From an uncultured delta proteobacterium (GTDB lineage Bacteria; Desulfobacterota; Desulfobacteria; Desulfobacterales; JAFDCJ01), in assembly GCA_963769935.1 (NCBI GenBank), contig CAVYNY010000013.1, positions 384,001-448,000 of the forward strand: a stretch of DNA of 64,000 bases. The letters run 5' to 3'. The translations under genes were made by a program, and so were the position numbers. How positions within the stretch are numbered: position 1 is the stretch's first letter; the number at the start of each line of letters is the position of its first letter. The notes under the pieces were generated by a model. The model saw only the letters and a program-made list of their open reading frames with translations, was not told the origin of the DNA and searched no databases. Positions 3,315 through 17,504 of the stretch are shown one piece after another.

Positions 3315-3639
3315 ACCCGAATTGAATAAGCGGCCGGAAGACATGCGGCAGTCGCCGACATTTGTAACCGGGGCGCAAATTCAAGAAGTTCTTGCAACTT
3401 CTCAGCAGCTGAAAATACCGGCCTGCAGAAGTGAGAATTGATCCTGCCTGAATATCATGCCTGGCAACCCAAAAAATCATCATATGGCGACGATTTTTTA
3501 TTGACCCATCCAATGCTGTCGGGTTAGAGAATACCCGCCAATTGCCATATCGCCGGAAAAGTAGAATAAAATTTCGCCCGGCCGCTGTCCCGGTCCATCG
3601 CGGGAACCGGCCGCCGTGGACGAATCACCTTTCAGGCCC

Positions 3640-4851
3640 ATGAAACGACCCATCATCCGTTTTTATAATGTCTTCAAAAAATTCGATGCCAACCAGGTGC
3701 TGGCCGGCGTCAGTCTGAGAATTTTTCAAGGGGAAGTAGCCACCATTATGGGCAAAAGCGGCGTGGGCAAAAGTGTACTGCTCAAGCACATCATCGGCCT
3801 TTTGCAGCCGGATGCGGGTGAAATTCTCCTTTACGGGCAGCCCATGTCCAAGATGAAGGCGTCAAAAATCAACAAGCTGCGGGCCAAGTTCAGCTACGTT
3901 TTTCAGGATACGGCGCTTTTCGACTCCCTGACCGTCTACAACAACATTGCCCTGCCCCTGCTGGAAGGGACATCAATGGCAAAATCGGAAATCAGGGAAC
4001 GGGTGCAGCAAAAAATGCAGCAGTTCGAGCTGGAGGCGTTTCGTGACAAATTTCCCGCCCAGCTATCCGGCGGTATGAAACGGCGGGTCGCCCTGGCAAG
4101 AGCGCTGGTAACAGATCCTGAGGTGGTTTTGCTGGATGAGCCGACCGCCGGCCTTGACCCTGTACGCCGCAACGCGGTATATGCCATGATTGTGGACTTC
4201 CAGAAAAAATTCGGCTTTACCGCGGTCATGATCAGCCATGAAGTCCCGGATGTCTTTTTTTTCTCCCAACGAATCGTCATGCTGGATGAGGGTAAAATCC
4301 GGTTTGAGGGCTCCCCCGAGGAGCTTCAGCGCTGCTCCGACTCGGCGGTTCAGCTGTTCATCCAGGGCTTGGAAAAGCCGCGCGACGCCCTGACCGGCAT
4401 GGCTACGCCGGTGCAGGGGGAACGCAAATTCCATGAAGCGTTGGCGCACCTGCAGCGTCACCAGATTGTCTTCTCCGTGGTGATGCTCACCGTTGAAAAC
4501 CTGGCTGAAATTAACGAAAAAATCGGGCATGTGGGAGGCCAGACCATGCTCAAAAACTTTGCCGCTCAGATAAAGCAGCGTCTCGACCTCACCGATTCCT
4601 GCTCCCGCTACAGCATGGACAAGATACTCGTCGTGCTGCACAACGCCGGCATCGACGACGCCCGCCGGTTTGCAACCCGGCTGGCCCGGGAACTGAAAAC
4701 TGAGGATCTGATACACAGAAACGAGAATCCTGATCTGTCGGTTCGGATCAGCGCCGGCTACGCCCAGGCCGAAGAAGACAGCCTGATCAAAGCGGTGCTG
4801 GCAAATGCGGAATCAAAAGACAGCCTGTACTACGAATTTGAGTTGAAATAA
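3640..4851 (+). CDS. MlaF/Ttg2A-like ABC ATPase fused to a degenerate GGDEF domain
   Basis: GKSGVGKS, LSGGMKRRV, LLDEPT, SH motif. C-terminal INEKIGHVGGQTML...RYSMDKILVVL...ISAG. Alternative GTG start at 3616. Confidence 0.85.
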   Translation: MKRPIIRFYNVFKKFDANQVLAGVSLRIFQGEVATIMGKSGVGKSVLLKHIIGLLQPDAGEILLYGQPMSKMKASKINKLRAKFSYVFQDTALFDSLTVYNNIALPLLEGTSMAKSEIRERVQQKMQQFELEAFRDKFPAQLSGGMKRRVALARALVTDPEVVLLDEPTAGLDPVRRNAVYAMIVDFQKKFGFTAVMISHEVPDVFFFSQRIVMLDEGKIRFEGSPEELQRCSDSAVQLFIQGLEKPRDALTGMATPVQGERKFHEALAHLQRHQIVFSVVMLTVENLAEINEKIGHVGGQTMLKNFAAQIKQRLDLTDSCSRYSMDKILVVLHNAGIDDARRFATRLARELKTEDLIHRNENPDLSVRISAGYAQAEEDSLIKAVLANAESKDSLYYEFELK

Positions 4852-4866
4852 CACTCCTGATCGAAA

Positions 4867-7116
4867 TTAGAGTGACTTGCAGTAAATGACTTTGTTGTCG
4901 CCCGGAGCGTAGAATTCCGTTAGCACCGCATCCAGCCGGTAGCCGGCATTTTCATAAAAGGCGCGCGTGCTGGCATACTGCAGGCGCTGGGAGGTGTCCA
5001 CATAGATGCGGCTGCCGCCGGCATCCCGGATCAGGTGCTCGGTCTCCTGCAGCAGCCTTTGCCCCAGCCCTTTGCCCTGTATATCCGGATGCACCGCAAT
5101 CCAGTATAGATCGTAGCTGCCGACGGTACACGAAATCTGCCCGTAGCAGGCATAGCCCACCAGGCGGCCGTACTGTTCAGCCATCACGAAATTGTAACCG
5201 CTGGCCGCACCCCGTGCAAGGCGCTCCTGGGCTAGTTCCTCGGCCACATCGACCTCCTCCTGCGAAAAAAAGCCGGTAACCTCAACCAGATGACGAATGC
5301 GTCCGGGGTCTTCCGGCTGCAGTTCATGCCGCAGTTGAATGCCTTGCAGCCTTTCAGGCGAAACTTTGTGGCTTTCGGCCCAACGCTGGGCCGCAAAGGA
5401 CAGCCCTTTAAAGAAATGCAGGGCATTGGTTCCCAGACTGCGGGTCCGATAGCCCCCTTCCTGGACCACCAGCGTCGGCAGGCCCAAACCACCGATCAGG
5501 CGACCGTTGGCCTCGAAATCTTTGGCATTCAGGGACCAGGTACCGGTGGGATCCCCTTTGGCCGGATCCAACCCCAGCGCCACGACCAGGAAATCGGGTT
5601 TAAAATCCGCGATGCGGCGCAGGGCCTTTTCCAGTGCCTTGAGGTGGGCGGCCCCGTCGACGGCCTCCGGCAGCGGCAGGTTCAGGTTGAAGCCCTCCCC
5701 TTCTCCCTCCCCGCACTCCTCCTTGAAACCGCTGAAATAGGGATAGGCAAAGGTGGGATGGCCGTGAATCGAAACGGTCAGGACATCGCTGCGGCGGTAA
5801 AAAATATCCTGCTGCCCGTTGCCGTGGTGATAGTCGATATCCAAAATGGCTACCCGGCCGTACGCGGTCAGGTATTCGGCCGCGATGGCATTGTTGTTGA
5901 AATAACAAAAGCCGCCGAAGTTGCGCCGCTCGGCGTGGTGTCCCGGCGGGCGCACCAGCGCGTAGGTAATCCTGCGGCCTGCCAGCAGCTCGCGGGCGGC
6001 GGTCAGCGCGCAATCGACACCCCGGCGCGCCGCCGGAAAGGCATTGCGATGTATAGGGGTGAAGGTGTCGATACAGTAGTAGCCGGCGAGCACCGAGGGT
6101 TCGTGCGGCGGCCGCGTCTTGTTGCGGATGGGAAAAATGTACGGGTAAAGGGATTTTTTCTCGTCGACTTCCCGGCAGGCCCGCCGCAGATAGTTGACAA
6201 AATCGGCGTCATGGACGGCATAAAGGTGCTTGTCCGGAAATTTGCGCGGTTTGACTTCAACGAACAGCCCGTGGGGCATCAGGGCCGCAGTAATGCTGCG
6301 AATGCGAACCGGGGATTCCACGTAACCGCGATCATGCACATGATGGATGTCATGGCGGTCATTAATGACGACCACGATCTGCTCATCGGATTGCGACGTC
6401 ACGGTCGCGCGCACGGCTTCGGGCTTGACATAGCGAAAAGGACGCAGCTGAACCGGGTCGTCGCGAAAGGAACGGATAACTTTGGTCACGTATTCAGGCG
6501 GACAGTAGTCCGCGTATTTGCGCTCCAGCAAGGCGCGTACGGCTTTCCTGGCAAAACTGCAGCGCGGCGCTTTGATCCGGTCCAAACCGTCGTAAACCAG
6601 ATGCGGCATGCAGCGGTCACCAGGTTTGACCGGCAGTTCGTAGTTCGTGTTGATGATCGGTCGCGCGCCGTAGCGTTCGTAAAAGCGCAAACGCGCCCGG
6701 TTCTCCTTTAAAAGGGCTTCGTCCGGGCAGGCTTCGAATTCGTCGGGCAGGCATTCAAAAAACAGACCTTTGGCGTCCAGGGCCACCGCTTCGCGGCGCA
6801 CGCGGTCGTAGAGGGCCCCGCCGAAACCCCCGCCGGTTTTGCCCTTGACGGAGGCAATCCAGTCTAAAAAACAGAAGCCGATCTGCGGTTCGTGCAGCAG
6901 CATGGCAAACCCCAGCACGCGCCGGCGCAGGTTCTCGGCCACAAAAAGGATGCTGCGCAAGCGCTGTTTGAATGGATTGCGCAGCTTTTCACCGATCAGA
7001 TCAATTTCTTCGGCCGGCACTGCACTGAAGCGGCTCTGCAAAATGGCTTTAACCTGCCGCAAAATTTCGCGGTTGACCGGCACGATATCATCATAGATAC
7101 GACGTATTCGGAGCAT
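4867..7116 (-). CDS. GNAT / histone-deacetylase-family (acetylpolyamine amidohydrolase-like) / GNAT fusion
   Basis: Deacetylase motifs RPPGHHA, GFCYFNN, DIDYHHGNG, GLDPAKGDP, QEGGY. N-terminal GNAT-like region (GGGFGGALY...RFYERYG) and C-terminal GNAT (VHPDIQGKGLG...AFYENAGY). Confidence 0.9.
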   Translation of the reverse strand: MLRIRRIYDDIVPVNREILRQVKAILQSRFSAVPAEEIDLIGEKLRNPFKQRLRSILFVAENLRRRVLGFAMLLHEPQIGFCFLDWIASVKGKTGGGFGGALYDRVRREAVALDAKGLFFECLPDEFEACPDEALLKENRARLRFYERYGARPIINTNYELPVKPGDRCMPHLVYDGLDRIKAPRCSFARKAVRALLERKYADYCPPEYVTKVIRSFRDDPVQLRPFRYVKPEAVRATVTSQSDEQIVVVINDRHDIHHVHDRGYVESPVRIRSITAALMPHGLFVEVKPRKFPDKHLYAVHDADFVNYLRRACREVDEKKSLYPYIFPIRNKTRPPHEPSVLAGYYCIDTFTPIHRNAFPAARRGVDCALTAARELLAGRRITYALVRPPGHHAERRNFGGFCYFNNNAIAAEYLTAYGRVAILDIDYHHGNGQQDIFYRRSDVLTVSIHGHPTFAYPYFSGFKEECGEGEGEGFNLNLPLPEAVDGAAHLKALEKALRRIADFKPDFLVVALGLDPAKGDPTGTWSLNAKDFEANGRLIGGLGLPTLVVQEGGYRTRSLGTNALHFFKGLSFAAQRWAESHKVSPERLQGIQLRHELQPEDPGRIRHLVEVTGFFSQEEVDVAEELAQERLARGAASGYNFVMAEQYGRLVGYACYGQISCTVGSYDLYWIAVHPDIQGKGLGQRLLQETEHLIRDAGGSRIYVDTSQRLQYASTRAFYENAGYRLDAVLTEFYAPGDNKVIYCKSL

Positions 7117-7139
7117 CTTTACAAACTCTTTATCTCTGT

Positions 7140-7282
7140 CTCAACCCGGACAAGACGGTTGGACTGAAAGGGAAATCCCGATTCATCGGGGAACCATAAA
7201 GTGCACATTAATCACGAAAGCACGAAAGGACGAAAACACGAAATGTAGAGAAGATAAATTTCGTGTTTTCAAGATTTCGTGA
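7140..7282. repeat. CCGGCTTGTCCGGGTT(A/G)AG-type repeat plus inverted CACGAAA arrays
   Basis: 7140-7158 is the reverse complement of 54742-54760 with one mismatch. CACGAAA units at about 7213-7243 face TTTCGTG units at about 7259-7282. Confidence 0.7.
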
Positions 7283-7325
7283 TAATAATATTTTTCCATA
7301 AAATGCAAAGAAATCACAATTAAGA

Positions 7326-8378
7326 CTAATGCAGATCGGCCGACCGGATGCGGCGGTATTGCGGCTGCTCGATCCCGTCGGCAACAATCCGTTTTACCGC
7401 CAGGGTAAAATCGATCCCGGCCCGCGCCAGGGCGGCGGCAAAACCGGCGTCAGGGCTTAGACACGGATTGGCGTTGATTTCCAAAATCCAGGGCCGTCCC
7501 TGCCCATCGACCCGATAATCGACCCGGGCATAGCCTCGCAGTCCGAACAATTGCCAAGCTTGCAAGGCCAAGGCCTGCAGCTCGTCGAGCAGGGGGTTGT
7601 CTTCGGTACCGAAATCGAACCTGCGGGGCGTGCGCTGATAATCGTCGGAGTTCACGTCCCATTTGGCACGATAACCGACAATCCGCGGCTGGCCGGCGCC
7701 AAACCCTTCGAAGCTGATCTCGGCCGGCGGCAACACCTGCGGGCCCTTGGGACCGGCCAGGACGGACAAATTAAATTCCCGGCCTTCGACAAAGACCTCG
7801 GCAAAACAAACTCCGCCCAGCGAGGGGGCGCGCCTTTGCATCGTCTGCTCCAGGCTCTGATCGCAGGTGTCTTCGACGATATTGTCCGCCTCCAGACCCA
7901 CCGAGGCATGCTCCCATAAGGATTTGATGATCCAGTGCTGCCCGGAAGAAGCCTGCCGGCCGACAGGCCGTAAAGATGGCGCCGACGGCAAATCCTGTGG
8001 GCAGGGTCCGGTCCAGGCCGGGGTCGGCAACTGCGCGGCAACCATGCGCTCTTTGGCCATTACCTTGTGGGATGTCAACCAGATGGCTTCGGCAGGGGCG
8101 CCGGTGTACCGCAGCCCCATGGCATCCAGCAGTGATGGAACCAGATGAATCAGACATCCGTGTCCGGCCAGAGACTCCACCAGGTTGAACACGAGATCCG
8201 GCCGCTGGGCTTGCAACTGATCGCGCAGCTGTCCCAACTCCAACCCGGCGGGCAGCGAAAAAGTCTCGTGACCCAAAGCCCGCAAGGCCTTTCGGACGGC
8301 ATCCACCTGGACCAGCACGTCCTGCTCATCCGCCGGACCGTCGTCCGTCACGGCGTTGTAAACCACCGACACACGCAT
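7326..8378 (-). CDS. D-Ala-D-Ala ligase-like ATP-grasp protein 2
   Basis: VFNLVES, YTG, HASVG, EVFVEGREF, GYARVDYR, EINANP. Lacks the GGxSxE motif of true Ddl. Start set at MRVSVV, which has a GGGAG RBS. Confidence 0.88.
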   Translation of the reverse strand: MRVSVVYNAVTDDGPADEQDVLVQVDAVRKALRALGHETFSLPAGLELGQLRDQLQAQRPDLVFNLVESLAGHGCLIHLVPSLLDAMGLRYTGAPAEAIWLTSHKVMAKERMVAAQLPTPAWTGPCPQDLPSAPSLRPVGRQASSGQHWIIKSLWEHASVGLEADNIVEDTCDQSLEQTMQRRAPSLGGVCFAEVFVEGREFNLSVLAGPKGPQVLPPAEISFEGFGAGQPRIVGYRAKWDVNSDDYQRTPRRFDFGTEDNPLLDELQALALQAWQLFGLRGYARVDYRVDGQGRPWILEINANPCLSPDAGFAAALARAGIDFTLAVKRIVADGIEQPQYRRIRSADLH

Positions 8379-8477
8379 TGTTAGCTCCCACGCTTCTGCG
8401 GTCCGCACCATCATTCGCAGGACGAAAGATCAGATTAAGCCGACCTGGATACGCCGGGTCTGAACTAAAATTCGGAC

Positions 8478-9536
8478 CTATCTGCTTTCTCCCCCTGCAG
8501 CAGCCTGGCGCTGCGAGTCGATGATCTTTCCGGAAACTGCCTGCGACCGCGGCGAAGTCATCCGCCGGCGGGCGGAGGCCATGATTTTTTCGATCAGCAC
8601 CTGATAGGACATGCCGATCCGACTGCAGATGATCGGCAGATCCGAATGCTCCGGATGCAAACCGGCCAGGGGGTTGACTTCCACGAACTGGGGGTTGCCG
8701 CGAGCATCGCAGCGGATATCGATCCGGCCGGCGTCGCGGCAGCCCAGCACGCGCCAGGCCTGCAAAGCAATCGCCTCGGCTTCCCGCACCGTGGCATCCG
8801 CCGCGGCATCAACCAGCCGGTATTCCACCAGTTCTTCACAATTTTCTTTGTTCTCATACGAATAGACCTGGGGTTCGGCGGCCGACCGCAGATGGAGTTC
8901 AATCGAGCCTAAAACTGCGGAATCCATTCCCGTTCCGACCAGACCGACGGTGAACTCGCGCCCCGGCAGGAATTCTTCTACCAGGACCGGCTGCCGATAG
9001 GCGCCAATCAGCTCGGCGCAGCGGGGCAGCAACTCCTCGCGTTGCCGGATGACGGAGGCCGGCGTGACCCCTTTGCCCGTCCCCTCAGCTACCGGCTTTA
9101 CGAAAAATGGCGGATCGAAAGTCACTGGCTCTGCCTGACGGCCGTCTTCAACCACCAGAAAATCCGGGGTCGGCACGCCGGCGTCACGGATCACCCGTTT
9201 GGTAAGGCCCTTGTGCAGCGACAAACTCATGACCAGCGGATCGGAAAAGGTATACGGGATATCATAGGCTTCCAGTAGGGCGGGTACTTGGGCCTCGCGG
9301 CCGAATCCTCTCAAACCCTCGGCGATATTGAATACCATATCCCAGCGGTCCCCTGCAACCAGCCGCTGTGCGAGGCGCATGACATTGCCGATGCGCTCCG
9401 TCCGGTAGCCGAGATCCTGCAAGGTCTGCTCGATGGCTTCAATCGTATCCGGGCGGTCGAATTCGGCCGTCTCCGCCTCGTCGTAGCCCATCGCGCGATA
9501 ATCATCGCGCAAATCATAGGTAAGTCCAATCTTCAC
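8478..9536 (-). CDS. D-Ala-D-Ala ligase-like ATP-grasp protein 1
   Basis: VFNIAEG, FVKPVAEGTGKG, EEFLPGREFTV, RDAGRIDIR, EVNPLAG. GTG start at 9536 after AGGAG. Confidence 0.9.
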   Translation of the reverse strand: MKIGLTYDLRDDYRAMGYDEAETAEFDRPDTIEAIEQTLQDLGYRTERIGNVMRLAQRLVAGDRWDMVFNIAEGLRGFGREAQVPALLEAYDIPYTFSDPLVMSLSLHKGLTKRVIRDAGVPTPDFLVVEDGRQAEPVTFDPPFFVKPVAEGTGKGVTPASVIRQREELLPRCAELIGAYRQPVLVEEFLPGREFTVGLVGTGMDSAVLGSIELHLRSAAEPQVYSYENKENCEELVEYRLVDAAADATVREAEAIALQAWRVLGCRDAGRIDIRCDARGNPQFVEVNPLAGLHPEHSDLPIICSRIGMSYQVLIEKIMASARRRMTSPRSQAVSGKIIDSQRQAAAGGESR

Positions 9537-9565
9537 GACATTTCTCCTACTGCAAACCACGTCAT

Positions 9566-10900
9566 TTATTTCAATGGGCTTTCCGCGACCGGTGCCTCAC
9601 ATCCGCCGGCGATGGGATAACGGTAGATGTCACCGGCATAGTTTTTGAGCAGCAAATCGTTGCCCTCGCGGCCCACCACATATTCCGGCAGGAGCGGAAT
9701 TTTGCCGCCGCCGCCCGGGGCGTCGATGACATAGGTCGGCACCGCGTAGCCGGTGGTGTAGCCGCGCAACCCGTGGATGACCTCCAGACCTTTTTCCACC
9801 GCCGTTCGAAAATGCCCCGAACCCAGAATGGGATCGCACTGGTAAAGATAATAGGGCCTGACCCTGATTCGCAGCAGCCCGTGCACCAGACTTTTCATGG
9901 TATCGACCTGGTCATTGACCCCGGCCAGCAGAACGGTCTGACTGCCGAGCGGAATGCCCGCATCCGCCAGGCGGGTGCAGGCCTCCTGAACTTCGGAGGT
10001 CAACTCGGCCGGATGGGTGCAATGTATGCTCATCATGAGCGGGTGATAACGCTTGAGCATCCGGGTCAGCGCATGGGTAATGCGCTGTGGCAGAACCATG
10101 GGCGCTTTGGTGCCGATCCGTATGATTTCGACATGCGGAATCTGGCGCAATCGCATCAGGAGGTATTCCAGTTTTTCATCGGGCAGGGTCAAAGGATCCC
10201 CGCCGGACAGGAGCACGTCCCTGACCGCGCTGTTCGCTTCGATATAAGCGAAGGCCTCCTCCCACTGCTGCATGTGAAAGGCCGCTTTTTGTCTTTGGCC
10301 TACCATGCGGGACCGGGTGCAGTACCGGCAATACGTGGAGCAGAACTCCGTCACGAGAAACAGGACCCTGTCCGGGTAGCGGTGGATCAACCCCGGAGCG
10401 GGGCTGTCGCTGTCTTCTCCGAGCGGATCATGCGATTCGCCCGCGGAATGCACATACTCGCTCGTCACCGGCACCACCGTGCGGCGCAGAGCCTGTTGGG
10501 GATCGTTCACATCGAGCAGGCTTGCATAGTAAGGGGTGATCGCGAAAGGCAGCGAATGACCATCATGGATCAGGGCCCGGCGTTCATCGTCTGAAAGACG
10601 GATAATCCGCTCCAGCCCGCTCGCGGTTGTAATTCGATTTCTCAGCTGCCAACGCCAGTTATGCCATTGGCTGGCGGTGGCTTCGGGAAAAAATTGTTTA
10701 CGAAAATTTTGCGTCCGTGGATTTTCCGGCAACAGCAGGTTTACCGGTTCCCGGGGTAAGGATTTCATCCCGGGTTTTTTTATATTTGGCAGGATATTGT
10801 GTTCGCAATGCTGGCTTGATTCGGCGTCCATGCGGGGGAACGCCGCCAGCCCGGTACCGGGAGGCTCCGCCTCTTCCGTAGAAAAAATAACTTTTCGCAT
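9566..10900 (-). CDS. kamA: KamA-family radical SAM aminomutase (lysine 2,3-aminomutase-like)
   Basis: HRYPDR, CSTYCRYC, LSGGDPL, QTVLL, PYYLYQCD and VIDAPGGGGKIP (PLP lysine). Confidence 0.93.
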   Translation of the reverse strand: MRKVIFSTEEAEPPGTGLAAFPRMDAESSQHCEHNILPNIKKPGMKSLPREPVNLLLPENPRTQNFRKQFFPEATASQWHNWRWQLRNRITTASGLERIIRLSDDERRALIHDGHSLPFAITPYYASLLDVNDPQQALRRTVVPVTSEYVHSAGESHDPLGEDSDSPAPGLIHRYPDRVLFLVTEFCSTYCRYCTRSRMVGQRQKAAFHMQQWEEAFAYIEANSAVRDVLLSGGDPLTLPDEKLEYLLMRLRQIPHVEIIRIGTKAPMVLPQRITHALTRMLKRYHPLMMSIHCTHPAELTSEVQEACTRLADAGIPLGSQTVLLAGVNDQVDTMKSLVHGLLRIRVRPYYLYQCDPILGSGHFRTAVEKGLEVIHGLRGYTTGYAVPTYVIDAPGGGGKIPLLPEYVVGREGNDLLLKNYAGDIYRYPIAGGCEAPVAESPLK

Positions 10901-10976
10901 ACTGTTTTATTCTCCTTTCTGAAGTCGTATTTTATTAACTGCGATCCGCGCCGTCCCTCAATTTACCGAACAGTTC

Positions 10977-10992
10977 AGCAATATATGTGCCA
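10977..10992 (-). promoter_or_regulatory. Sigma54 -24/-12 promoter of the kamA operon
   Basis: Minus strand TGGCAC-ATATA-TTGCT, full consensus, 77 bp upstream of the start codon. Confidence 0.85.
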
Positions 10993-11045: not shown

Positions 11046-11192
11046 CGGAACCGCAAGTTCCGAAGTTTCACGACTTTGTTCGACTACCGCCTGTTTAGCC
11101 GCTTAAAAAGCGGCTATGGGGACATTGGCCGGCAACCCGCAGGACGAACTGCAAGTTCTTATCCGGCTCAAAAACAGGAATTGTCATATCTG
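11046..11192. promoter_or_regulatory. Putative UAS palindromes for the kamA promoter
   Basis: Perfect CGGAA-N7-TTCCG at 11046-11062; weaker sites at 11144-11160 and 11176-11192. Confidence 0.7.
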
Positions 11193-15516: not shown

Positions 15517-17388
15517 TTATATTAGCTTATCCTGCGAGCGCAACAGCCGCAGCAGATACCGCTGGGCCAGGAGGTCGGAGCTGACCATACCAAGCACCTT
15601 TCCTTCATCCACTACCGGCATGGCCGAAATCTGGTTTTGCTCAAGGTCGGTAACAATATCCAGGATACTGGAAGCTGGATTTGCTGCAACCACCGTGCGC
15701 GTCATAATTGTTTCCACGCTTTGTTCGCACACATTTTCGGCCACGGCCTGGGTGATATCCCAGGCGGTAATCACGCCGACAAGTTTATCGTCCTGGGACA
15801 AAACAGCGATAATGTTGCTCTGGCTGTTTACGATCAGCGCTGCGGCAGCCTGCAGCTTGGCCTCATAGCTGATGGTGGGGATCGGTGCCATAATGTCTTG
15901 CGCCGTCCGCTTCCGTTCTTTGGCGGCAAGTCGCCCGAGGGCAATATGCTCTGCAGCTTGACTCGGCAGCAGGTCCGTGTCCGCGGCCAGCAGGTCTACC
16001 AGTTCCGTCATGTTGCGCCGAATCGCCGCTTCCCGGTGTGCGTTGCCCGCTGCCAGGCGCATTTCAGAGAGGGCTGCAAATTCAGTTTTATTTTCAGCCA
16101 GCCAGGTATCGACAGCCTGTCGATTGCCGAGCAAGGCCGCGGGAATCTGGAGATGCGCCGGGGTCGGGATAATGTGCTCCTGGGCGGCGAATATGACACC
16201 GCCGGAGTTGACCAGATAGTCATTGGCGATCATCACTCCCCTGCGACGATAAACTGCCCGCTCCATGCGGGTCCGCCCGGCTTTGCGATTCGGATCCGGT
16301 GAGTAGGTATTGGCCCCTTCGATAATGACCGACCAGCTTCCCATCTGATCGACACTCATGGAACAGGGATCGGAGGGGCGCACGCCTAAATAGTCGGCCA
16401 CGGGTGCCGCCGGGATGAAGCAAAAAGACGATTCCCGCAAGAGGTCGTCGGCATCTGTTGAAAATTTGGCGGAGTGGCGATGACCTGGGGGGGCGATTTC
16501 CGCTTCAAAATAATGAGGCGTTACCAGGCTGCCCTGCTTGGCCAGACCGATCAACTCGTTCACCGGCAGACCGGCTTTGTCGTAAAGATAACCATGCAGG
16601 TCGCTGATACCGACAACCTTGGCCAAGGGAAGTCTTTCGAACAATATGCGTGCCGTATGGGCGCCGACCGCGCCGAACCCCTGGATGATGACGGTCAGCG
16701 CTTCCGGAACGGGCACCTTGATTCGGGCAAATTGAGGCAGAACGGTCAGACGCGGCATGATTTCCAGCAGCCGCTCAAGGGCGATCACCAGGCCGCCGGC
16801 CGCAGCCCCGAGTTCATCGATACGGTTGCCGCCCATATCGGCGGGCTTGGAAACCGCGCTGTCGATGCCGTTTTCAACGGCAACCGTTTTCATGTCGGCA
16901 TCCTTGGTCCCGACATCCGGACCGGGTACATAGATGTCGCGATAACGAAAAAGCAGGCGCGCAAATCCCCTTACAATTTCAGCGTGCGCTTCGGGCGATG
17001 TTCCGGATTCGGCCACAATACCGGTCTTACCGCCGCCATAGGGAAGATCGGCGGCCGCATTTTTTAAAGTCATGCCGCGGGCAAGATTGTGGATGTCTGC
17101 CGGAGTGACGTCGGGCAGCATCCTGATGCCCCCCATGGAAGGGCTGCCCATGGCTAAATTGTCCACCACCAGGTAGCCGCCGATTTCCAAGTCGGAAGCT
17201 TCGTCCCACATGCAGGCAACCAATCGCGGACCGAGCCCGTCGCAGTTGATTCCCATGCGCGAGAGAAGCTGTTCGTCGGTGTAAACGAACTCCAGATAGC
17301 ACTTTCCGTTGCGCCTCTCGGTACGATTCTGAATGGCGGTTGCGGGTATATGATCCCTTAAATAGGCTTCCATGCTTGCGGGTATCAT
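15517..17388 (-). CDS. Glu/Leu/Phe/Val dehydrogenase with a C-terminal CBS pair
   Basis: GGIR, MTLK, GGGK, GPDVGT, QGFGAVG, EGAN, NSGGV, then two CBS repeats. Start uncertain (17433, 17388 or 17373). Confidence 0.88.
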   Translation of the reverse strand: MIPASMEAYLRDHIPATAIQNRTERRNGKCYLEFVYTDEQLLSRMGINCDGLGPRLVACMWDEASDLEIGGYLVVDNLAMGSPSMGGIRMLPDVTPADIHNLARGMTLKNAAADLPYGGGKTGIVAESGTSPEAHAEIVRGFARLLFRYRDIYVPGPDVGTKDADMKTVAVENGIDSAVSKPADMGGNRIDELGAAAGGLVIALERLLEIMPRLTVLPQFARIKVPVPEALTVIIQGFGAVGAHTARILFERLPLAKVVGISDLHGYLYDKAGLPVNELIGLAKQGSLVTPHYFEAEIAPPGHRHSAKFSTDADDLLRESSFCFIPAAPVADYLGVRPSDPCSMSVDQMGSWSVIIEGANTYSPDPNRKAGRTRMERAVYRRRGVMIANDYLVNSGGVIFAAQEHIIPTPAHLQIPAALLGNRQAVDTWLAENKTEFAALSEMRLAAGNAHREAAIRRNMTELVDLLAADTDLLPSQAAEHIALGRLAAKERKRTAQDIMAPIPTISYEAKLQAAAALIVNSQSNIIAVLSQDDKLVGVITAWDITQAVAENVCEQSVETIMTRTVVAANPASSILDIVTDLEQNQISAMPVVDEGKVLGMVSSDLLAQRYLLRLLRSQDKLI

Positions 17389-17504
17389 CGGCCGGTTACC
17401 CCCTTTGCTTTGCGCTTCGTAATTTTGAAGCATGTTGACTTATAACAAGTCATTCGAAAAGGCCCTCATCTCCTATTACCCGATAAAACGAGAAAACCAA
17501 AGTC

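Follow-up and report, generated by a model that had tools for sequence, protein, structure and literature searches.

A candidate beta-lysyl amide operon with two Ddl-like ligases and a proline-codon motif in its first gene

The operon described here lies on the minus strand of a 64,000-nucleotide stretch of DNA from an uncultured delta proteobacterium (contig CAVYNY010000013.1; hereafter the window), in which a sequence-only reading had placed four co-directional genes behind a consensus sigma54 promoter. We confirm both the four open reading frames (ORFs) and the promoter. A sigma-54-type -24/-12 consensus, TGGCAC-N5-TTGC (10977..10992, read from 10992 to 10977), stands 92 nt 5' of the ATG of kamA (9566..10900; 444 aa), which encodes a radical S-adenosylmethionine (SAM)/pyridoxal phosphate enzyme of the lysine 2,3-aminomutase type. 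It is followed by ligA (8478..9536; 352 aa; GTG start with a ribosome-binding site), encoding an ATP-grasp ligase with the fold of D-Ala-D-Ala ligase (Ddl), by ligB (7326..8378; 350 aa), encoding a second Ddl-like ATP-grasp ligase, and by a gene for a GNAT-deacetylase-GNAT fusion protein (7116-4867; 749 aa). The nearest named homologues belong to Desulfobacterales. Our full reading, to which we give even chances, is that this sigma-54-type operon produces a small beta-lysyl amide that is acetylated and polyamine-like, and that a conserved Glu-Pro(CCU)-Pro motif in its first gene limits the pathway by pausing the ribosome.

A strict match to the sigma-54 consensus is expected by chance at a rate of 0.004 per 350 nt in this genome, and one is found upstream of the cassette at 10/115 loci as against 0/115 control stretches; the promoter match is therefore real, though confined to some lineages. 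Both relatives in the genus that carry the operon retain the consensus. Further upstream, two GAAC-N5-GTTC palindromes, to which no strand is assigned, are candidate binding sites for a sigma-54 activator (11146..11158 and 11047..11061, the second with a matching site in the genus relatives L016 and L017); such palindromes occur upstream of 7/115 loci and in 1/115 control stretches. Contigs of close relatives span the operon in four metatranscriptome assemblies from one study, in which DNA carry-over is possible, and just upstream of the promoter two of the four have no cover, as judged from contigs only and without a silent control.

Residues 65-430 of KamA align to the lysine 2,3-aminomutase (LAM) of C. 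subterminale (2A5H; E 3e-133), and the protein scores above the TIGR00238 cut-off (350 vs 199 bits), which places it in the KamA family of radical SAM aminomutases. Asp293 and Asp330 mark lysine rather than glutamate 2,3-aminomutases, and together with Arg134 they form the residue signature of LAM. The sequence-only reading had recognized the lysine-type Asp pair, and the equivalents of D293, D330, K337 and R134 prove invariant, together with the cluster cysteines (CxxxCxxC), in 174/174 KamAs of the cassette. The best NCBIfam score is that of AblA (TIGR03820; 473 bits against a cut-off of 525). We consider it very probable that KamA converts L-lysine to beta-lysine. The arginine 2,3-aminomutase model also scores the protein, at 391 bits; the LAM Zn ligand Cys268 is not kept, the residue adjoining D293 differs as well, the C-terminal Zn-binding part of LAM is missing (the match stops at 2A5H residue 369), and in two Planctomycetota loci an aminotransferase gene stands in place of kamA before ligA. 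These features would suit an aminomutase acting on another basic amino acid, such as arginine, or on a bound substrate, and hence a different beta-amino acid in the product. Such an enzyme is improbable, however, given that the lysine models score higher (473 bits) and that all listed LAM catalytic residues are invariant. The two Planctomycetota loci (L130 and L131, in genomes G186 and G153) carry this aminotransferase-like gene, presumably of class-V type, ahead of ligA-ligB; in both genomes kamA stands alone elsewhere with its motif kept, and G153 has an extra efp-linked KamA-family gene.

LigA and LigB both contain the Pfam domain Dala_Dala_lig_C, share 25% identity with one another and 23-29% with Ddl/Van-type ligases, fall under all cut-offs for those ligases, and score 123 and 77 bits against the TIGR01205 cut-off of 246. 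The fold was judged for LigA by predicted structure (predicted local distance difference test score, pLDDT, 94.3; the best Foldseek matches are Ddl, at a template modelling (TM) score of ~0.77) and for LigB by alignment only. With the functional roles of Ddl substrate-site residues as background, we aligned 154 LigA and 201 LigB sequences to the genome's own two canonical Ddl. The Lys/Glu/Arg/Asp/Asn set of the ATP-grasp site is kept in both ligases at 95-100%, one Glu of LigA standing at 99%. The two thus have the fold and the ATP-grasp residues of a D-Ala-D-Ala ligase but lack its GGxSxE motif, its His, its omega-loop Tyr and a qualifying TIGR01205 score. The substrate-site changes run from His to Glu in both ligases (100% and 99%), from Tyr to Glu or Trp, and from Leu to Asp or Gly. 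LigA keeps the Ser that holds the acceptor carboxylate (88%), followed by Asp (68%) or Cys; in LigB Ala-Gly replaces Ser-Leu at this site and an invariant Trp stands in place of the omega-loop Tyr. The absence of GGxSxE, already noted from the sequence, holds for the motif as such, but the Glu at that column is kept in 99% of LigA (n=154) and 65% of LigB (n=201). The genome carries two separate canonical Ddl genes with GGxSxE, so that the pair is not needed for D-Ala-D-Ala. From the alignment columns we infer a diamino-acid donor and an amino-acid acceptor for LigA, and for LigB an acylated or peptide donor with an acceptor free of a carboxylate. A LigA query gave no match among plasmids.

The fusion protein has the three-domain architecture that had been proposed for it. 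Pfam identifies Hist_deacetyl and a C-terminal GNAT, and the N-terminal 235 aa, with no Pfam match, are assigned to the GNATs by Atlas at 0.98; on the minus strand, the N-terminal GNAT (GNATn) occupies 6412..7116, the Zn-dependent deacetylase 5383..6381 and the C-terminal GNAT (GNATc) 4867..5343. The best solved relatives of the deacetylase domain are acetylpolyamine amidohydrolases (6PHR, 9GKZ, 3Q9B; E 4e-70), and alignment to 6PHR and 9GKZ reveals the Zn and catalytic motifs and the extended L2 loop of that family. According to the accessible part of one report, bacterial polyamine deacetylases fall in a single deacylase cluster (cluster 4) with the long L2 loop as its mark (PMC11532494). 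The structural-genomics protein 2R7H is a relative of GNATc (E 9e-45), and a literature search by its locus tag returned nothing about function. Among relatives GNATc may stand alone or be joined to LigB or to the deacetylase, and GNATn is joined to the deacetylase in every full-length case. This GNATn-deacetylase module is present in 15/251 sampled genomes of the phylum, 14/15 of which also have ligB, at times on another contig, while ligB is present in 69/251. Because of this difference we regard the module as a dedicated accessory to a core of kamA, ligA, ligB and GNATc. The reversible acetylation proposed earlier would accordingly be an accessory function outside the core.

The linkage of these genes, which a neighbourhood survey was expected to decide, is conserved across 212 loci retrieved by querying with ligA or ligB (a number that takes in the window and counts L078, L080, L103 and L152 twice). 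The layout of the window recurs in 26/212; the others include ligA-ligB-GNATc-kamA (33), kamA-ligA-ligB-GNATc (25) and kamA-ligA followed by a LigB-GNATc fusion (15/212), and most remaining loci have the same core with a different order or fusions, many of them cut by contig ends. LigA-LigB fusion proteins were found, as were KamA-LigA fusions in L177 and L210. Record titles name Desulfobacterota, Planctomycetota, Krumholzibacteriota, Spirochaetota, Verrucomicrobiota and Chloroflexota, and we read some metagenome loci as archaea-like from their neighbouring genes. Matches of the ligA type occur in 31/201 and 19/201 genomes of two other phyla, and the cassette in 3/23 genomes of the window's own genus. 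This arrangement bears on the parallel with AblA/AblB drawn in the sequence-only reading, and on the alternative that the operon would make plain N-epsilon-acetyl-beta-lysine for use as an osmolyte, with the ligases separate or minor. AblA is the model that scores KamA best, and a route combining KamA with a GNAT is documented for methanogens and has been proposed for Pelobacter, as far as the parts consulted of two papers describe it (PMC3543383, PMC11337218). The parallel survives as an analogy only: AblB (TIGR03827) matched neither in the fusion nor elsewhere in this 97% complete genome, ligA rather than a GNAT usually comes next after kamA, kamA-ligA persists without an adjoining GNAT, and many loci have a LigB-GNATc fusion. 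We judge the osmolyte very unlikely to be the product.

The feature that sets the first gene apart is an acidic Glu-Pro-Pro motif, here at kamA codons 9-15 (10856..10876, minus strand), whose Pro-Pro is encoded CCU-CCC (10864-10859) and which is a candidate ribosome pause/slip element. It lies in a leader (KamA residues 1-41) that is predicted to be disordered (pLDDT <50) and is variable apart from the motif. A first survey found the motif in 54/58 KamA leaders, a count that, like the 212-locus layouts, includes the four doubly fetched loci; the motif counts that follow exclude them. Where kamA comes first (n=116), the motif is present in 98/113 scored KamA leaders and in 0/115 LigA loops. Where ligA comes first and kamA last (n=38), it is present in 13/31 LigA, at a loop inserted after the first strand, and in 0/38 KamA. 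It was found in 2/26 ligA genes without kamA in the fetched stretch and, at archaea-like loci, in 0/4 KamA and 0/7 LigA. Eight cassette-type kamA genes lying apart from ligA (L306-L308, L311-L315) have Glu-Pro-Pro in five cases, a single-Pro variant in two and neither in one. Pro13 is invariant in 40 aligned KamA sequences, most of them picked as motif-bearing. A FastTree phylogeny of 174 KamAs groups the leaderless enzymes in a single clade (support 1.0), nested within which the kamA-first locus L276 has regained the motif. The pattern, then, is that the motif follows the first gene of kamA-containing operons. At one locus (L025) an ORF inserted 5' of kamA has the leader motif as well, likewise encoded CCU-CCG.

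The motif lies between codons 12 and 40 (median 22, 116 genes), and its first Pro codon is CCU in 104/130 motifs, 17.5 being the expectation for these genes, and CCU or CCC in 123/130; free variation is seen at the second Pro codon and at the Glu codon (Glu as GAA 63, GAG 54). This set of 130 contains two mis-scored LigA stretches (L120, L149), which also entered the 116-gene analysis and are excluded from the LigA codon count of 13/14. The bias persists after clustering at 70% identity (33/37), against a genome background in which CCU comes first in 11.8% of Pro-Pro pairs (n=3726) and in 11.4% of those that are acidic (n=88). The density of in-frame CCU-CC is 4.58 per kb in leaders vs 0.02 per kb in KamA cores, the Pro-Pro frame is used 118 times vs 35 and 7 for the other two, and where His, Gln or Lys precedes the prolines CCU-CC is mostly retained. 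The available portions of earlier reports describe CCC/U-CCN as slow, prone to slippage and disfavoured at the first position (PMC8129111), elongation factor P (EF-P) as suppressing frameshifts at slippery proline codons (PMC7577736), and acidic-proline pausing in MgtL, with stalls stronger near the 5' end (PMC12856214). A slow or slippery pair of Pro codons thus appears to have been selected at a fixed place near the 5' end, as would suit a pause or slip element, and the motif probably acts during translation. A leader-peptide attenuator of the pyrL/MgtL type does not fit, the motif being in frame with kamA and terminators not enriched; the +1-frame product after the motif is not conserved either, its stops being scattered (median 26 codons).

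It could also be that the pathway is as we propose while the motif senses nothing, being a fixed brake on level or folding, an anti-Shine-Dalgarno element acting as RNA, or a peptide for docking. The CadC CCU-CCC-CCU sequence acts as such a constitutive brake, in the accessible part of PMC8129111, and GAA followed by CCU-CC equals the anti-Shine-Dalgarno core. Yet pairing with the operon's own Shine-Dalgarno sequence, which we tried and rejected, is predicted in only 6/116 loci, and the motif stays in the Pro-Pro frame. The acidic residues, conserved at the protein level with both Glu codons in use, also speak for this alternative, but a docking peptide would neither fix a synonymous codon nor move between unrelated proteins, and the leader is predicted to be disordered. 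A predicted complex of KamA leader residues 1-40 with LigA and LigB scored 0.02 and was used neither way. We consider a motif without a sensing role unlikely.

Beta-lysine and Pro-Pro synthesis are both tied to EF-P, and the place of the EF-P system in this genome therefore needs to be weighed. The sequence-only reading had noted no efp or epmA in the window; this is true of epmA, but a gene over the cut-off lies ~17 kb from the operon on the same contig (G000:C13:370959-371933), outside the window, and an efp with a Lys-tipped loop lies on another contig. The operon's kamA is the genome's only match over the TIGR00238 cut-off, and KamA may supply EpmA on the side. Ligation of beta-lysine onto a macromolecular acceptor, be it EF-P, a different protein or the cell envelope, with the GNAT and deacetylase switching the mark and the Pro-Pro motif reading EF-P activity, would be in keeping with this gene content, with small-genome, cassette-bearing Chloroflexota of which several have efp adjoining an epmA-like gene, and with a Pro-Pro motif placed on the very gene that makes beta-lysine. 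The distribution argues otherwise. In the genus, epmA is over the cut-off in 21/23 genomes and the cassette is present in 3/23; among cassette-type genomes, epmA is over the cut-off in only 10/37, four more having sub-cut-off, EpmA-sized hits beside efp; and the motif-bearing G343, G403, G316 and G379 gave only hits of the size of lysyl-tRNA synthetase (LysRS) in the epmA search. Archaea-like loci have the cassette, lost EF-P activity would reduce KamA and so amount to positive feedback, and the Ddl fold normally joins small molecules. We give this alternative little credence. KamA also falls short of the EpmB model (252 vs a cut-off of 369 bits), without the linkage to and co-occurrence with efp and epmA of an EpmA/EpmB system, and EF-P modification as the main role was rejected because the epmA/efp distribution does not follow the cassette. 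Alongside this, epmA adjoins a separate deacetylase-family gene (G000:C13:369503-370837), with no epmB or efp beside it; the genome also encodes a 750-aa distant KamA-like protein (G000:C22:123582-125834; 22% identity, under the cut-off); and KamA-family matches over the cut-off, present in only 8/23 genomes of the genus, are too few to account for the beta-lysine of EpmA, whose gene is in 21/23.

From what is observed above, namely the genes and their linkage, the conserved residues, where the motif occurs and its codon bias, the chemistry and the sense of regulation, all of it inferred, would run as follows. KamA would turn L-lysine into beta-lysine. LigA would activate the beta-lysine carboxylate with ATP and join it to an amino acid having a free carboxylate, a role suggested by its acidic donor pocket and kept acceptor Ser. 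LigB and GNATc, to judge from their fusions and the lost Ser, would add a second unit without a carboxylate, such as a diamine, with GNATc acetylating the product or an intermediate. Taken together, the LigA and LigB/GNATc steps seem to us rather likely. Overall a two- or three-unit amide would result, which the polyamine-type deacetylase and the LigB acceptor site suggest to be polyamine-like, and the optional GNATn-deacetylase module would recycle or unmask the acetylated compound. A stall or +1 slip at CCU-CCN would lower the output of the first gene and then, by polarity, of the rest. The trigger might be an excess of beta-lysine or product that hinders EF-P-assisted Pro-Pro synthesis, giving negative feedback, a mechanism for which we put the chances slightly below even. 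We favour it over EF-P sensing because the motif tracks kamA and because the search gave no epmA in four motif-bearing genomes; sensing of unmodified EF-P is less favoured because it would be positive feedback. A broader proposal, that the operon provides a beta-lysine-based polyamine substitute with a portable in-frame Glu-Pro(CCU)-Pro sensor, re-inserted into whichever gene comes first, is doubtful at present.

Several observations weigh against our reading. KamA is under the cut-off of every specific NCBIfam aminomutase model, and the substrate calls for the ligases are alignment columns mapped to the genome's own Ddl, without docked ligands. The motif is absent from 18/31 LigA-first loops and 15/113 KamA leaders, several of which have CCU-CC variants. 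The link between gene order and the place of the motif is confounded with phylogeny and, at about three independent events, is a pattern and not statistical proof. Intrinsic terminators after the motif are not enriched (24/100 vs 27 and 4 in controls). Sequence following the motif is C-rich (a skew of 0.20 vs 0.05 and 0.02), which may mark a Rho site or only the composition of a Pro/Ser-rich linker. Finally, 15-16 kamA-ligB loci without ligA (e.g., L161, L163, L165) have a different conserved KamA leader.

The cassette appears to point to a beta-lysine metabolite, and its ligases, ligB being common in the phylum, are labelled in databases as D-Ala-D-Ala ligases. The motif bears on whether bacteria sense a metabolite by EF-P-dependent translation within a coding sequence. 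If product or beta-lysine does hinder EF-P, bacteria would have an equivalent of the control that polyamines exert through eIF5A. No account of the operon or the motif was found in full-text literature searches, which mostly covered papers outside subscription; the accessible portions of three papers treat only AblAB or beta-lysine linked to nonribosomal peptide synthetases (PMC3543383, PMC11337218, PMC9811515).

Other features were noted in the region and at related loci. Between ligB and the fusion gene, and no part of the pathway, lies a dispersed palindromic intergenic repeat (7143..7325, no strand assigned) with 80 blastn hits in the genome, which also yields loose ends in the metatranscriptome contigs. 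An ABC-transporter ATPase fused to a GGDEF-like domain (3616-4851) converges on the end of the operon, and a Glu/Leu/Phe/Val dehydrogenase fused to CBS domains is encoded at 15517-17433; in L016 a dehydrogenase-CBS-like C-terminus is found directly 5' of the kamA promoter. Elsewhere, a CxxCxxCC (PF03692) gene of ~170 aa stands between kamA and ligA in 15/80 loci (e.g., L059:6504-7025), and L234 and L235, contigs from viral collections, have ligB-like genes with the other cassette genes undetected.

In light of these observations, the operon would combine two known kinds of system, amide synthesis by ATP-grasp enzymes using a beta-amino acid and translational control by proline codons, and by the comparisons made here it belongs to none of AblAB, Ddl or EpmAB. 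Like AblA/AblB it places a KamA-type aminomutase and a GNAT in one operon, but its GNATs are not AblB and it adds two ATP-grasp ligases and an optional deacetylase. LigA and LigB share with Ddl/Van-type ligases the fold (TM ~0.77) and the residues for ATP binding and phosphoryl transfer, and differ in their substrate sites, in a genome with separate Ddl genes. The deacetylase has the Zn and catalytic motifs and long L2 loop of an acetylpolyamine amidohydrolase, but is fused to one or two GNATs, has a shorter N-terminal loop and, in the form found here, occurs almost only in genomes with the ligase cassette. Synthesis of the dipeptide osmolyte NAGGN likewise pairs a GNAT with an ATP-grasp ligase, and the BlsG/BlsI pair of blasticidin S an aminomutase with a ligase, although substrates and gene sets differ in both. 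EpmB/EpmA are alike in KamA-family beta-lysine and amide joining, with EF-P acting on Pro-Pro, but EpmA is a LysRS paralogue, here encoded separately, whose distribution does not follow the cassette. A Pro-Pro upstream ORF that senses polyamines is known in eukaryotes from AZIN1. The MgtL leader and CadC CCU-CCC-CCU, in the parts of the reports available, also set acidic residues and slow or slippery Pro codons near the 5' end (PMC12856214, PMC8129111); the motif described here instead lies within the reading frame of the first enzyme, moves with gene order, and stands on a putative beta-lysine pathway.

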